Source: an uncultured Actinomycetota bacterium
GTDB lineage: Bacteria; Actinomycetota; Actinomycetes; JAHEKZ01
Length of the DNA: 64,000 bases
Direction: 5' to 3'
NCBI GenBank assembly: GCA_963743915.1
Contig: CAVURN010000002.1
Coordinates: forward strand, 576,001-640,000
The notes beneath the pieces were generated by a model. That model saw only the letters and a list, made by a program, of their open reading frames with translations, did no database searches and had not been told where the DNA came from. Positions 21,288-39,035 of the stretch are shown here, piece after piece (position 1 is the first letter of the stretch; each line of letters opens with the position of its first letter). Made by a program: the position numbers and the translations under genes.

Positions 21288-21806
21288 GTGGCTGCAAAGA
21301 CCACCACGGCCAAGAAGGCAGCGAAGCGTTCGACCGCTGCCAAGCGGACGACGAAGAAGTCGACTGCTCGCAAGGCCGCAACGAAGCGCACGACCAAGAA
21401 GGCGACCGCCAAGAAGACGGCCAAGAGGGCCCCTGCGAAGCGGACCGCCAAGAAGGCCACCAAGAAGTCGGCCGCCAAGCGCACTGCCAAGAAGGCCACG
21501 AGGAAGACGGCCAAGAAGGCACCCGCGAAGCGGACCGCCAAGAAGGCCACGAGGAAGACCGCCAAGAAGGCACCCGCGAAGCGGACCGCCAAGAAGGCCA
21601 CCAAGAAGGCGGCCAAGCGCGCTCCTGCCAAGCGGACCGCCAAGAAGGCCACGAGGAAGACCGCCAAGAAGGCACCCGCGAAGCGGACCGCCAAGAAGGC
21701 CACCAAGAAGGCGGCCAAGCGCGCTCCTGCCAAGCGGACCGCGAAGAAGGCCACTCGGAAGACCGCCGCCAAGCGGACCGCCAAGAAGACGGCTCGTCGG
21801 CGCTGA
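21288..21806 (+). CDS. Histone H1-like Lys/Ala/Thr/Arg-rich DNA-binding protein
   Basis: AGGAGG RBS; almost entirely KRTAKKA.. repeats; followed by a terminator hairpin. Confidence 0.85.
21438..21790 (+). repeat. Coding tandem repeats, mostly 51 nt (17 aa) units
   Basis: AAGCGGACCGCCAAGAAGGCCAC recurs; units [17 protein letters not shown] and [17 protein letters not shown]. Confidence 0.85.
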
Positions 21807-22101: not shown

Positions 22102-22950
22102 ATGTCGGTTCTGTCACCCGGTCGCGTCTCGCCGCGGCGTCCCGTGCCCCCGGAGATCGCACGTCCGGAATACGTCAACCGTCCTGCACCGGCGCCGTAC
22201 ACCGGTCCCGAGGTCAAAGACGCCGACACGATCGAACGCATGCGAGTCGCCGGACGTCTGGCTGCCCAGGCCATGCGCACCGTGGCCGGACACATCGCAC
22301 CTGGTGTCACGACCGACGAGCTCGACCGCATCGGCCACGAGTTCCTCTGCGACCACGGCGCGTATCCCTCGACCCTGGGGTACAAGGGCTTCCCCAAGTC
22401 GTTGTGCACCTCGGTCAACGAGGTGATCTGTCACGGCATCCCTGACAGCACGGTCCTGAACGATGGCGACATCATCAACATCGACATCACTGCCTACATC
22501 GGCGGCGTCCACGGTGACACCGACGCCACCTACCTGGTGGGAGAGGTCGACGAGGAGTCGCGTCTGCTGGTGGAGCGCACCGAGCAGGCGATGATGCGGG
22601 CCATCAGAGCCGTCGCCCCCGGTCGGCCGGTCAACGTGATCGGGCGTGTCATCGAGGCCTACGCCCGGCGCTTCGGATACGGCGTCGTCCGTGACTTCAC
22701 CGGTCACGGCATCGGTACGGCGTTCCACTCCGGTCTGGTCATTCCTCATTACGACGAGCCGGCCTACGACACCGTCATCGAGACGGGGATGACCTTCACC
22801 ATCGAGCCGATGCTGACGCTGGGCACCATCGAGTACTCGATCTGGGACGACGGGTGGACGGTGGTGACCGCCGACAACAAGCGCACCGCGCAGTTCGAGC
22901 ACACCATTCTGGTCACCGACACGGGTGCCGAGATCCTCACGCTCCCCTGA
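22102..22950 (+). CDS. map: Type I methionine aminopeptidase
   Basis: [35 protein letters not shown]. Confidence 0.97.
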
Positions 22951-22961
22951 ACCCGCCTACC

Positions 22962-23033
22962 GGTGATCGGTGCATTTCAGTCACGTTCGAGCTGCTTCAT
23001 CACCCTTCGAATGCCTGAGGTGCTTCGATCACC
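22962..23033. repeat. 72-bp imperfect palindrome (REP doublet-like), copy 1
   Basis: GGTGATCG...CGATCACC; arms 22960-22983 and 23012-23035 complementary at 19/24. Confidence 0.75.
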
Positions 23034-24040
23034 GGGATTGGCCCACCTTGAAGTGGGGCGCGGTTCACGAAACTCGCACGCGACCCCGGCCATGGCCCCG
23101 GTTCCACCAGCCACACGCCGGACGGCCACCGCCACCGTGACCGCAGCTGAGCGTCCCGCAGCTGGCGCCAACGGGCCGCCACACCGGCGGTGTCGACCCT
23201 CAATCGATCGCTTCCGTAGCGCAGGAACCGGAAGTCGCGGTCCTCGAACCACTCTTGCCTCATCTTCTCGTTCCACAGGGCGTCGGACACCTCATACTTC
23301 GCCCGCCCATCGGCCTCGCCGATCAGCCCCCACTCCGGCCAGAGCTTGTCCGGCCGGTACCACTGCACGCTGCCATCTCCGACCCACCATTGCAGCAGCG
23401 GACAGGGGATGCCCTGGATCAGGAGGTGGCCTCGGGAGAACGACTCAAGCGGCGTCTCTGACAGACCATCTGCCCACGTCAGGCATTGTCTGGCGCGTTT
23501 CGCGAAGTTGATGTCACCGAGATCGTCCAGTACCTCAAGGGCTCGGTATCGATGTTCGGGATCCCGGGCAATCGCTGCATCCAGGGGCACGAGCGCCTGC
23601 GGGATCGGTGAGACCCGGCAGATGTCCACCATGGTGCGGGGCAACGAGGTCACTGGCAGCCCCTCAATCTCGACGACGTCATCCGCAACCACTCCGTAAC
23701 GGTGGACCAGTACGCCGGACAACCTTGACCCGCCGGGAGATCGAGTTACCTCCGGTCGGACCTTCGACCACAGGGGAAGAGTGTGCAGGGTGGCCGCGGA
23801 CCGGTGACTGACCACCACATCGGGACCTGCGGCCACGGCTCCACGCAGGAGCGGTAGCAGGCAGTCGTCTCGGGCCTCGGTGTACACCCCACCGCGGACG
23901 CGCATCAACAGGCCCTGGCGCACCCACCTGCGCAGGTCGTTGTCCGTGCACCCGAGCTGTAACAACGCACCACGGGAAGCTGCTCCCTGAGAGGCCAGGT
24001 GGTCCTCCACGGGTGCAGGGAGCACGTGATCGCCGGCCAT
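23000..24040 (-). CDS. AbiEi-like N-terminal wHTH protein with C-terminal PD-(D/E)XK/Vsr-like (DUF559-type) domain
   Basis: LMRVRGGVY, VVSHRSAATLH, VTSLPRTMVD, SETPLES, RPD..W..LIGEADG.AKY, EK.R. Confidence 0.8.
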   Translation of the reverse strand: MAGDHVLPAPVEDHLASQGAASRGALLQLGCTDNDLRRWVRQGLLMRVRGGVYTEARDDCLLPLLRGAVAAGPDVVVSHRSAATLHTLPLWSKVRPEVTRSPGGSRLSGVLVHRYGVVADDVVEIEGLPVTSLPRTMVDICRVSPIPQALVPLDAAIARDPEHRYRALEVLDDLGDINFAKRARQCLTWADGLSETPLESFSRGHLLIQGIPCPLLQWWVGDGSVQWYRPDKLWPEWGLIGEADGRAKYEVSDALWNEKMRQEWFEDRDFRFLRYGSDRLRVDTAGVAARWRQLRDAQLRSRWRWPSGVWLVEPGPWPGSRASFVNRAPLQGGPIPVIEAPQAFEG

Positions 24041-24145
24041 CGAGTGATGGTGAACGTTGGTACCGACGTCCGGACGAAATCCACAGCCGTCGAGAGCGGC
24101 GATCCGAAATTCGGCCGACCTCGCCCCACGACGCCCCCACCCTCT

Positions 24146-24217
24146 GGTGATCGAAGCGTCCTAGTCACTTTGACGGGCGTTGGGATCCGCCAGAGTGACT
24201 AGATCGCTCCGATCACC
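24146..24217. repeat. 72-bp imperfect palindrome (REP doublet-like), copy 2
   Basis: GGTGATCG...CGATCACC; 31-bp arms complementary at 26/31. Confidence 0.8.
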
Positions 24218-24232
24218 GTCGCGAGGGTAAGG

Positions 24233-25432
24233 ATGCGGACGCCTGCGACCGATACCCCCACCATGCGTACTGGGAAGACTGCCGCGTCCTCAGCGGACGC
24301 CTGCCGTCGCTGCACCGCTCTGCTGCCCTCCGGTGTTGCCCGCTGCTCGTTGTGTGGTTGGCCGGCCGGAGTCGGTTTCCCGCCCACCGACGGCGAGCTC
24401 GCCATGACGACGCCTCCGGACGACGTCGAACCGGAGGTCGAGGCACCCGACCACGGACAGCTCGACGCCCTCGCCGGCATCGCCGAGCGACAGGCGCCGC
24501 CGAGCGAAGAACCCGCCGAGGCGATGCCAGTGACGCCGGAGACCGGAGCGATCGGAGCCCCGGTCGAGGCTGCCCATGTTCAGGAGCCGGATGTCGCCCA
24601 CGATCGCGAGCCTTCACCCGCTCCCGAGACCGATGGCGCGATCGAGCAGTTCGACCCGCTCACCGCGCCTCTCGAGACCCTGATCGAGGACATCGAGCCG
24701 CAGCGTGGGGACGACGTGGTGGCGGTGGACGACAGCTCGGCTGTGCCCTCGCGGTCCGGGCGCACCTTCGACGTCCAGCGCCTCTGCCAGGTACTGGTCA
24801 TGAGTGCTGCGCTGTCGAACCTCGCCCTCGCTGGCCTGGAGGTCATCGCCGAGGGTTCGATGGCGGTGCTCGCCCTGGCACTGGTGAGCCTCGGCATCTG
24901 GACGGCCGCGGCCATCACTTTCCTGCACTGGGTGTCTCGCACCTACGCCCGCGTCGTCAGCACGTCGCCGGTCCGACAACGGCACGGCGCGACGATGGCT
25001 GTCGCGGGCTGGATGATCCCGGTTGCCGGGTTCGTCATCGGCTACCGCGTGCTGCAGGACCTCTGGGCCGGCTCGGACCCAGCCACCCGCAGCAACCCCG
25101 AGGCGACTCCGGCGAAGGCACGTGTCATCGACGTGTGGCTGCTCGGACTGGTCACGGCGACCGTGTTCGGGTACGCCATGCCCCTGGCGCTGGGCGACTC
25201 CACCCTCTGGGGCGTCCTCAGCTCGGTCGGCGTGCTCACGGCCGCCTTGGCGCTCATCCAGGTCATGAGCACCCTCGGCGCCTGGTCCGTCGACACCGAC
25301 ACCGACAGCACGACCGCACCGACGACGTCCATCCAGGTAGCTGACGAGGGAACCGTCACGACACGGGTCGACCACCTCGAGGCAGTTGCACCTGACGTCG
25401 TTCCTGAGGAAGCGCCCGTCTCCGTCGACTGA
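24233..25432 (+). CDS. DUF4328-like membrane protein with N-terminal Zn-ribbon and acidic linker
   Basis: CRRC-x10-CSLC; R..G..AVAGWMIP..G..YRVLQDLW; several TM helices; start uncertain. Confidence 0.65.
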   Translation: MRTPATDTPTMRTGKTAASSADACRRCTALLPSGVARCSLCGWPAGVGFPPTDGELAMTTPPDDVEPEVEAPDHGQLDALAGIAERQAPPSEEPAEAMPVTPETGAIGAPVEAAHVQEPDVAHDREPSPAPETDGAIEQFDPLTAPLETLIEDIEPQRGDDVVAVDDSSAVPSRSGRTFDVQRLCQVLVMSAALSNLALAGLEVIAEGSMAVLALALVSLGIWTAAAITFLHWVSRTYARVVSTSPVRQRHGATMAVAGWMIPVAGFVIGYRVLQDLWAGSDPATRSNPEATPAKARVIDVWLLGLVTATVFGYAMPLALGDSTLWGVLSSVGVLTAALALIQVMSTLGAWSVDTDTDSTTAPTTSIQVADEGTVTTRVDHLEAVAPDVVPEEAPVSVD

Positions 25433-38979: not shown

Positions 38980-39035
38980 TGCCGAGTGCGGTGCTGGTTG
39001 ACGCTCCGCGGCGTCAACCAGCACCGCACTCGGCA
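38980..39035. repeat. Perfect 25-bp inverted repeat; probable pts operon terminator or REP-like element
   Basis: TGCCGAGTGCGGTGCTGGTTGACGC-tccgcg-GCGTCAACCAGCACCGCACTCGGCA. Confidence 0.85.

Follow-up and report, generated by a model that had tools for sequence, protein, structure and literature searches.

Why does a gene for a predicted nuclease lie between two palindromes of one and the same length, and what does the encoded protein have to do with them? The question is posed by a locus in a window of 64,000 nucleotides from an uncultured Actinomycetota bacterium. The window is the whole stretch of DNA that was analysed, and it sits in contig C2 of the genome G000 (2.92 Mb, 70% G+C, 5 contigs, 90% complete). 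An open reading frame (ORF) of 346 amino acids on the minus strand (23000..24040), single copy in the genome, was flanked by two palindromes at 22962-23033 and 24146-24217. Each spanned exactly 72 bp, from GGTGATCG to CGATCACC, and the motif GGTGATCGRWGCN5AGKCA was fitted by all four arms. The 346-amino-acid gene, the two palindromes and their arms were as described in the original prediction, which had been made from the letters alone and had likened the locus to REPINs, the hairpin-forming doublets of repetitive extragenic palindromic (REP) sequences, operating without a REP-associated tyrosine transposase (RAYT). That likeness was supported by the analysis. The two palindromes belonged to a dispersed family of hairpins, termed family A, and the preferred reading, to which we assign a probability of about 60%, is a cognate nuclease-palindrome system in which the bracketed gene encodes the partner protein of the family. 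The protein would then be expected to bind the arms and to cut, spread or protect them, as the prediction had supposed.

The decisive result was that paralogues of the window gene each had a palindrome family of their own, a pairing that the original prediction had named as worth looking for. At least ten genes of this architecture were found in the genome by tblastn and a scan with AbiEi_4, each in single copy. Gene calls outside the window were crude calls from ORFs and third-codon-position G+C content (GC3). Inverted repeats framed seven of the ten family members, a different repeat family in each case, and gene-less copies of every one of these families were dispersed elsewhere. The window gene was framed by the 72-bp hairpins of family A, which numbered 19 loci. 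The gene at C3:486512-487453 was framed by family B, a 62-bp palindrome conserved throughout, with 24 loci; the repeats on its two sides matched over 61 nt at 93% identity. The gene at C5:20871-21878 was framed by family E, whose 32-nt arms stood three in tandem on either side, in inverted orientation. The others were family F (C5:548631-549695; 48-51-nt palindrome, about 6 hairpins), family G (C5:90929-91906; ~60-nt hairpins, of which the right-hand one overlaps the ORF end, 13 arms), family H (C1:646303-647403; 18-nt inverted arms adjoining the ORF ends, 19 arms) and family I (C3:578622-579728; 19-nt inverted arms, 7 arms). In family B, 18 of the 24 loci lay at most 30 nt 3' of a stop codon. 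The orientation of its copies relative to the adjacent gene looked mixed, and no orthologue of the family B gene was found in the genus.

The pairing of gene and repeat was also found across species. The comparison set comprised 41 genomes of the same genus, family and class, mostly draft assemblies that are kin and not independent of one another; one of them, G025, flagged as unpublished, entered only the tallies, and no claim is made on it. Orthologues of the family E gene were present in 10 of the 13 other genomes of the genus at 62-75% identity. With this genome counted, 9 of the 11 gene loci were enclosed by inverted arm arrays, and the exceptions, in G013 and G002, were truncated or partial matches. 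The arms kept CCGAGTGC and TTGAC across species, and a species-specific 8-nt block differed. A loose arm pattern matched 6-64 times in the 11 genomes that carry the gene and 3, 4 and 11 times in the three that do not; a control pattern gave 0-3 matches. Furthermore, the family E unit occurred in three chromosomal contexts, always with its arms. These contexts were discordant with the tree of map, the methionine aminopeptidase gene (a single-gene tree), which indicates that the unit has moved or been exchanged.

Within the genome, family E had about 16 multi-arm loci, and only the locus at C5:20871-21878 was split by a gene, which sat at the exact centre of the palindrome; the gene-less form was common. 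The largest locus (C2:554852-555203) was a gene-less nested palindrome about 350 bp long, in which four forward arms preceded five reverse ones, most of them spaced by 32 nt; a stricter pattern scored three forward and five reverse arms there. A gene-less member was also seen in the window, as a 54-bp palindrome GCCGAGTGCGGTGCTGG...CCAGCACCGCACTCGGC at 38981-39034 (C2:614981-615034).

When the two flanks of each gene were compared with one another, two of 300 size-matched random genes passed, one of them the family F member, leaving 1 of 299. In the same test 4 of 16 more distant family members in the relatives passed, against the 1 of 299 random genes (Fisher p = 2e-5). Under random placement, family A would bracket a given gene with a chance of 4.7e-5 and family B with a chance of 7.6e-5, and the joint chance of both brackets was about 1.5e-7. 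The association between gene and repeat was specific, repeated and conserved.

Family A was examined throughout the genome. The arm motif had 16 exact matches and 30 matches at up to one mismatch. In the window, up to two mismatches, only the four arms matched (expected 0.12), and none of 100 shuffles reached four. Pairing of the outer arms gave 22 candidates, of which 19 were retained as hairpin loci; C1:92809, C2:594161 and C3:289598 were dropped as plain G+C-rich chance pairs with no inner arm. Sixteen of the 19 spanned exactly 72 bp, and the other three spanned 73, 74 and 85 bp. The arms thus recurred elsewhere in the genome, contrary to the outcome that the original prediction had named as evidence against itself. 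A covariance model built from 23 copies recovered the same 19 loci, in 38 matches covering both strands. In the window, hairpin copy 1 (22962..23033) scored 57.2 bits with covariance model R1 on the plus strand, and hairpin copy 2 (24146..24217) scored 67.3 bits on the plus strand and 66.8 bits on the minus strand.

The family A copies shared one layout. The outer 12 nt of the arm were almost invariant, the next 10 nt were variable, and the centre of about 28 nt was unlike between copies. A single long hairpin was predicted for all 19. For the two window copies, RNA folding on both strands gave long hairpins of -33.8 to -49.5 kcal/mol, with z-scores of -3.7 to -7.1. Against Rfam, the region 22800-24400 matched no real family; the best matches, to models of microRNA precursors, reached 30 and 24.6 bits, versus gathering thresholds of 128 and 65. 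None of the 19 loci was inside a high-GC3 ORF, save for overlaps with ORF ends. For thirteen of the 19, the stop codon of a high-GC3 ORF lay no more than 30 nt upstream, and several of these copies were between convergent genes. A formal enrichment 3' of stop codons was over-optimistic, because the crude gene set inflates the intergenic denominator. A central GGCGTCC motif, considered as a mark of element polarity, was rejected, being present in only a minority of the 19 copies. In an informal tally of the strand bias of G-U pairs relative to the upstream gene, which was not used as evidence, about eight copies folded better on the transcribed strand and two on the opposite strand, and the rest were ties.

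In the window, copy 1 began 11 nt past the map stop codon and overlapped the 3' end of the nuclease gene, with its right arm and centre encoding the last 11 codons and the stop codon. The stop codon was at the centre of the hairpin, within which the original prediction had placed it. Copy 2 was located 105 nt upstream of the nuclease gene start, in the divergent spacer toward a gene for a DUF4328 protein. The nuclease gene was free-standing between its two neighbours, which were identified with Pfam as map (Peptidase_M24) and the DUF4328 gene; neither an AbiEii toxin gene nor a transposase gene adjoined it, as had been noted from the sequence. Next to map, a 172-amino-acid ORF (21288-21806, plus strand) consisted almost wholly of alanine/lysine-rich repeats of the AKKA/TAKK type and adjoined map in G009 also; we take it to resemble actinobacterial histone-like or HU-tail proteins.

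The map-DUF4328 locus was compared among the relatives. The sole orthologue of the window gene among the 41 genomes was in G009, at 61% identity, and every other match was at most 44% identical. The G009 gene likewise lay between map and the DUF4328 gene and was flanked on both sides by family A hairpins. Its upstream hairpin was 87 nt from the start codon, and at the other end its reading frame ran through the whole hairpin. At locus L054 (G009:C132), a partial right-arm duplication of 15 nt (GCTCCGATCACGCA twice) was seen directly 3' of a family A hairpin. A search of genome contigs gave one related locus, L037, at 59% identity, and a search of metagenome contigs gave no related locus among 146 candidate stretches.

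In the 11 other genomes of the genus with an assembled locus, the spacer was in one of several gene-less states, in line with the gene-less site that the original prediction had anticipated downstream of map. It contained one hairpin in G002, G004 and G010, a degenerate relic in G001, no hairpin in six genomes and about 1.1 kb of other DNA in G006 (L031, G006:C3). The DNA in the G006 slot appeared unrelated and lower in G+C, and the map match of this genome was split into two frames. In the map tree (12 rows, with G006 omitted for its split match and G013 because an orthologous map was not found), G009 was the sister of G002, which has a solo hairpin at the site, and not of this genome. The clade of G003, G011 and G012 had neither the gene nor any hairpin.

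The hairpin model counted 19 in this genome and 12 in G009, where the gene was present, and 6, 5, 4, 4, 2, 1, 1, 0, 0, 0 and 0 in the 11 genomes of the genus with an assembled gene-less locus. Some hairpins were at orthologous sites in two or three species, and others were lineage-specific. At the orthologous sites the outer 12 nt were kept, the inner arm was altered on both sides and the centre was scrambled. Both the hairpins and the gene have been gained and lost between species.

The protein was modelled with AlphaFold2 (predicted local distance difference test 86.2, predicted template modelling score 0.80) on an alignment of 12 orthologue-level proteins of 47-92% identity. Orthologue-level proteins from metagenomes were P0001-P0011. 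The model was composed of a winged helix (residues ~1-60), an AbiEi-type middle domain (residues ~59-191) and a Vsr/DUF559-type nuclease domain (residues ~194-300). Residues 1 to ~191-210 matched AbiEi (PDB code 6y8q; aligned residues 6-191) and Rv2827c (PDB code 1zel) with Z scores of 10.8 and 8.4, respectively. Residues 194-300 matched the DUF559-type protein NGO0050 (PDB code 3hrl; Z 8.1, root-mean-square deviation (rmsd) 2.6 over 92 residues), the catalytic domain of I-Bth0305I (PDB code 3r3p; Z 7.8, rmsd 2.5 over 96 residues, Foldseek TM 0.75) and Vsr (PDB code 1vsr; Z 5.8, rmsd 3.0 over 98 residues). The modelled fold is thus that of an AbiEi-type DNA-binding module joined to a Vsr/DUF559-type nuclease, as had been proposed from the sequence.

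Profile searches were less uniform. In Pfam the window protein matched AbiEi_4 only, at 23.3 bits and under the cut-off of 25, while the PADLOC AbiEi models matched residues 12-145 with a best E value of 1.2e-14. The AbiEi assignment was therefore weak by Pfam and firm by the modelled structure and the PADLOC models. The paralogues scored 16.4-23.4 bits against DUF559, only one of them above the cut-off of 20.6, and more distant homologues bore PF04480 or PF18741. No NCBIfam family matched the window protein, and no recognised transposase was found for it in Pfam or NCBIfam. In the genome, at 90% completeness, neither AbiEii (DUF1814, PF08843) nor the RAYT-type Y1_Tnp had any match, whereas control genomes did match Y1_Tnp. 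Residues Asp231, Glu242, Asp244 and Lys248 (RPD...EADG..K) were invariant in all 12 orthologue-level sequences. The C-terminal tail (residues 331-346) was disordered in the model, was not conserved among the orthologues and corresponded to the translated hairpin arm.

Several observations weigh against the protein being the partner of the palindromes. Within the genome, the family C repeat was on one side only of its gene, and no flanking repeats were detected at C1:22659 or at C2:388754. The last of these members (C2:388754-389626) appeared frameshifted, with its AbiEi_4 helix-turn-helix in a separate upstream ORF of 81 amino acids (C2:389596-389841), and may be a decaying copy. Family B repeats also bracketed an amidase gene (C5:527495-529049; Pfam Amidase, E 5.8e-87), so that an ordinary gene can be framed by these hairpins as well, and a doubtful 101-amino-acid ORF. 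Among the distant members in the relatives, 12 of 16 had no detectable flanking repeat. The expectation of the original prediction that homologues would have flanking palindromes was thus borne out by G009 and by the framing of seven paralogues with seven families, and failed for these 12 and for two or three of the ten members here. In addition, about 10 hairpins each were found with no orthologue-level match in G013, which is 73% complete with its map locus unassembled, and in G014, of another genus and 88% complete. Many family A copies must be old, because several of them are at orthologous sites in species whose map genes are only 83-85% identical.

Further points against it concern the hairpins as elements and the nuclease assignment. 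No direct repeat was evident around the 19 copies, whose flanks mostly prolonged the palindrome by C/G (cc...gg). When filled and empty sites were aligned, the intergenic DNA was too diverged for a clean insertion boundary to be read. Pfam DUF559 gave no match to the window protein at E values up to 1. The agreement of variable positions within a hairpin, which the original prediction had noted, stood only in part. Among 16 copies of this genome in a rigid register of 32 pairs, covariation was not above shuffles (182 of 500 as high). With 23 copies drawn from 6 genomes, pairing across the 22 arm pairs was 87% versus 26-41% when slid, and the covariation score was 0.182 versus 0.140 for shuffles (1 of 500 as high), a score that sequence kinship can inflate.

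If the gene does encode the partner of the palindromes, a mechanism can be proposed. The winged-helix module would recognise the conserved 22-nt arms, by analogy with characterised AbiEi proteins, which act on pairs of 23-bp inverted repeats, and the protein would probably also regulate its own gene through hairpin copy 2. The nuclease domain would nick or cut at or beside the palindrome. Such cutting may drive the copying of palindromes into further sites, most of them immediately 3' of stop codons, or may serve their upkeep and removal. At least seven nuclease-repeat pairs would operate in parallel in the genome, each nuclease with its own family. Binding, cleavage and the causal direction, in which the protein would spread the hairpins, are inferred.

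The alternative that survived best, unlikely as it is, treats the gene cassette as a mobile homing-type element, with the arms as its ends or recognition site and the gene-less palindromes as relics or uncut targets. The position of the family E gene at the exact centre of a palindrome that is common in gene-less form, the three contexts of this unit in the genus, always with arms, and the solo hairpin left at the map locus in three gene-less species are consistent with such an element. An upstream motif points in the same direction. Nine of the 10 family members had a motif of the GTCCACAG/ATCCACAG type upstream, at a distance of 42-87 nt, versus 45 of 2209 crude genes overall; in the spacer that separates the window gene from hairpin copy 2, ATCCACAG lay at 24079..24086, 46 nt ahead of the start codon. 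The motif (GAGTTATCCACAGGC) also persisted in the gene-less map-DUF4328 spacers of G004, G005, G007, G008 and G010, where it would be a relic of the upstream region of a gene since lost. The motif was seen at loci L021, L024, L025, L028 and L029. Several instances read TTGTCCACA or CTGTCCACA, which we take to resemble the actinobacterial DnaA-box consensus. Furthermore, metagenome contigs from two studies joined 22950 to 24190, skipping the gene, with matching sides only 22-30 nt long (likeness threshold 88); this joint gives a weak hint of a natural gene-less allele. The depth of the gene-skipping contig was about 11, versus about 6 for the gene-bearing contig, and neither depth differences nor uncovered parts of the stretch were used as evidence.

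The predicted nuclease domain resembles that of a homing endonuclease. In the excerpted text of Taylor et al. 2011 (PMC3239194), I-Bth0305I of the EDxHD type is a homodimer with a Vsr-like nuclease domain that acts on a pseudopalindromic target. The window protein is like this enzyme and the Vsr/DUF559 nucleases in the fold of its C-terminal domain and in being multidomain with a separate DNA-binding part, and by this analogy a pseudopalindromic target is plausible for it. Unlike the EDxHD homing endonuclease genes, the window gene was outside any intron or intein and was framed by repeats that are also found without it. In addition, no partner methyltransferase or mismatch-repair context was seen adjoining the gene.

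Against a homing cassette, the genes were single copy while the repeats numbered 5-24 or more, which would require many former residences for a small genome. Families A and B flanked their genes with two complete hairpins and not with half sites. Their copies favoured positions about 10 nt past stop codons, which fits the insertion of a small element, or selection, better. The locus was also compared with insertion sequences and their miniature inverted-repeat transposable elements. The inverted arms of family E flanked a gene, and gene-less copies joined arm to arm were present elsewhere, as in those elements. In contrast to insertion sequences, there was no recognised transposase (DDE, HUH, serine or tyrosine recombinase), the gene-bearing units were single copy, no target-site duplication was seen, and families A and B flanked the gene with complete palindromes.

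A second alternative, improbable on the evidence, is that the protein is an orphan transcription factor of the AbiEi type, the dispersed palindromes being its operators and the flanking copies serving only autoregulation and termination. Characterised AbiEi and Rv2827c bind pairs of 23-bp inverted repeats in their own promoters and thereby autoregulate, according to the portion of the source used here (PMC7319586). The two N-terminal domains of the window protein were AbiEi-like, with a winged helix and an AbiEi-type second domain as in the AbiE type IV toxin-antitoxin systems of Streptococcus agalactiae (6y8q) and Mycobacterium tuberculosis (Rv2827c, 1zel). Hairpin copy 2 was upstream of the start codon, by 105 nt here and 87 nt in G009, and an inverted repeat of about 22-23 bp upstream of the gene recalls the AbiE operators as described in that portion (PMC7319586). 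Unlike AbiE, there was no AbiEii toxin gene, adjacent or genome-wide, the protein had an extra C-terminal nuclease domain, and the 'operator' was a genome-wide repeat family lying mostly 3' of genes.

The distribution of the repeats speaks against such a regulator, since most copies (13 of 19 in family A, 18 of 24 in family B) lay just 3' of stop codons and not in promoters. The hairpin sites turned over between species, and the nuclease domain retained its four invariant charged residues in all 12 sequences. Ten paralogues with private regulons of 3' palindromes would correspond to no known regulatory design.

A third alternative, very improbable, is that the palindromes are REP-like terminators or mRNA stabilisers of the host, functionally unrelated to the gene, and that genes of this family tend to land or survive between them. 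The copies were 3' of genes, several of them between convergent genes, their RNA folds were stable, an amidase gene was likewise bracketed by family B, and G013 and G014 kept about 10 hairpins with no orthologue detected. However, unlike intrinsic terminators, whose G+C-rich hairpin is followed by a T-run, none of the 19 copies had a T-run in its 25-nt downstream flank. This alternative also leaves unexplained the framing of seven paralogues each by a different dispersed family, the family E pairing in 9 of 11 genomes and the co-variation of arms and gene by species; the brackets of families A and B alone had, as given above, a joint chance of about 1.5e-7.

Finally, coincidence, in which two unrelated copies of a common repeat happened to fall in the spacers beside the gene, can be set aside: random placement of 19 copies in about 2700 spacers yielded one or more adjacent pairs in the genome in about 12% of trials, but the same bracket occurred in a second, non-sister species (G009) and analogous brackets occurred at six other family members. 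The association was specific, was found seven times in one genome and was kept across species, which rules out coincidence and makes the host-terminator reading unlikely.

The cognate nuclease-palindrome system was also compared with REPIN/RAYT. In the excerpts of Bertels & Rainey 2011 (PMC3116915), a single-copy RAYT gene is flanked by repeats of its own REP type, and a genome can hold several such pairs, each distinct. Judged against these excerpts, the system described here is similar in its many-copy short extragenic palindromes, whose inverted doublets fold into one hairpin, in the single-copy gene flanked by its own repeat type and in the pairing of distinct genes with distinct families. 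Many repeat sites were common to species, and repeat populations were bigger where the gene was present, which is also as in REPIN/RAYT. REPIN/RAYT genes and their repeats are mostly inherited vertically; here the family A gene had one locus in two non-sister species and some hairpins were at orthologous sites, but the family E unit occupied three contexts. By the same comparison it differs in that the protein is not an IS200/IS605-like HUH Y1 transposase, the defining feature of a RAYT. The copy numbers were 5-24 and not hundreds, the host is actinobacterial, and the gene of family E sits inside a palindrome built of tandem 32-nt arms. Because the enzyme is a winged-helix/AbiEi module with a Vsr/DUF559-type nuclease, its mobilisation chemistry, if any, must differ from that of RAYT.

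A wider interpretation can be offered only tentatively. These pairs may represent a second class of REPIN-like replicator in Actinobacteria, mechanistically unrelated to the first, in which a winged-helix/Vsr-type nuclease recognises and propagates its own palindromes. The at least seven pairs would then be orthogonal, with arms co-evolving with their proteins and specificity diversifying. In the open full-text literature, subscription journals being outside its coverage, no description of such a nuclease-palindrome association was found among the papers listed, none of which combined REPIN/RAYT with Actinobacteria, and no paper was found combining DUF559 with AbiEi.

Few non-coding features of bacterial genomes are as common as REP-type repeats, and what maintains these repeats is a long-standing question. 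RAYT transposases, worked out mainly in Proteobacteria, are to our knowledge the only kind of protein partner known for the repeats so far. The architecture of an AbiEi-like helix-turn-helix with DUF559 is very common in actinobacteria and uncharacterised, and is routinely annotated as an orphan antitoxin or a hypothetical protein. At this locus the question becomes directly testable, with the same logic of one gene and one repeat family found repeatedly within one genome and again across species. Should the protein act on the palindromes, a function would be given to a large family of 'orphan antitoxins' and an origin to the dispersed palindromes of high-GC Gram-positives. The lifestyle of REPIN/RAYT would then have evolved convergently on a different enzyme, and the paralogues would provide a set of natural nucleases, each with a different target of about 22 bp.

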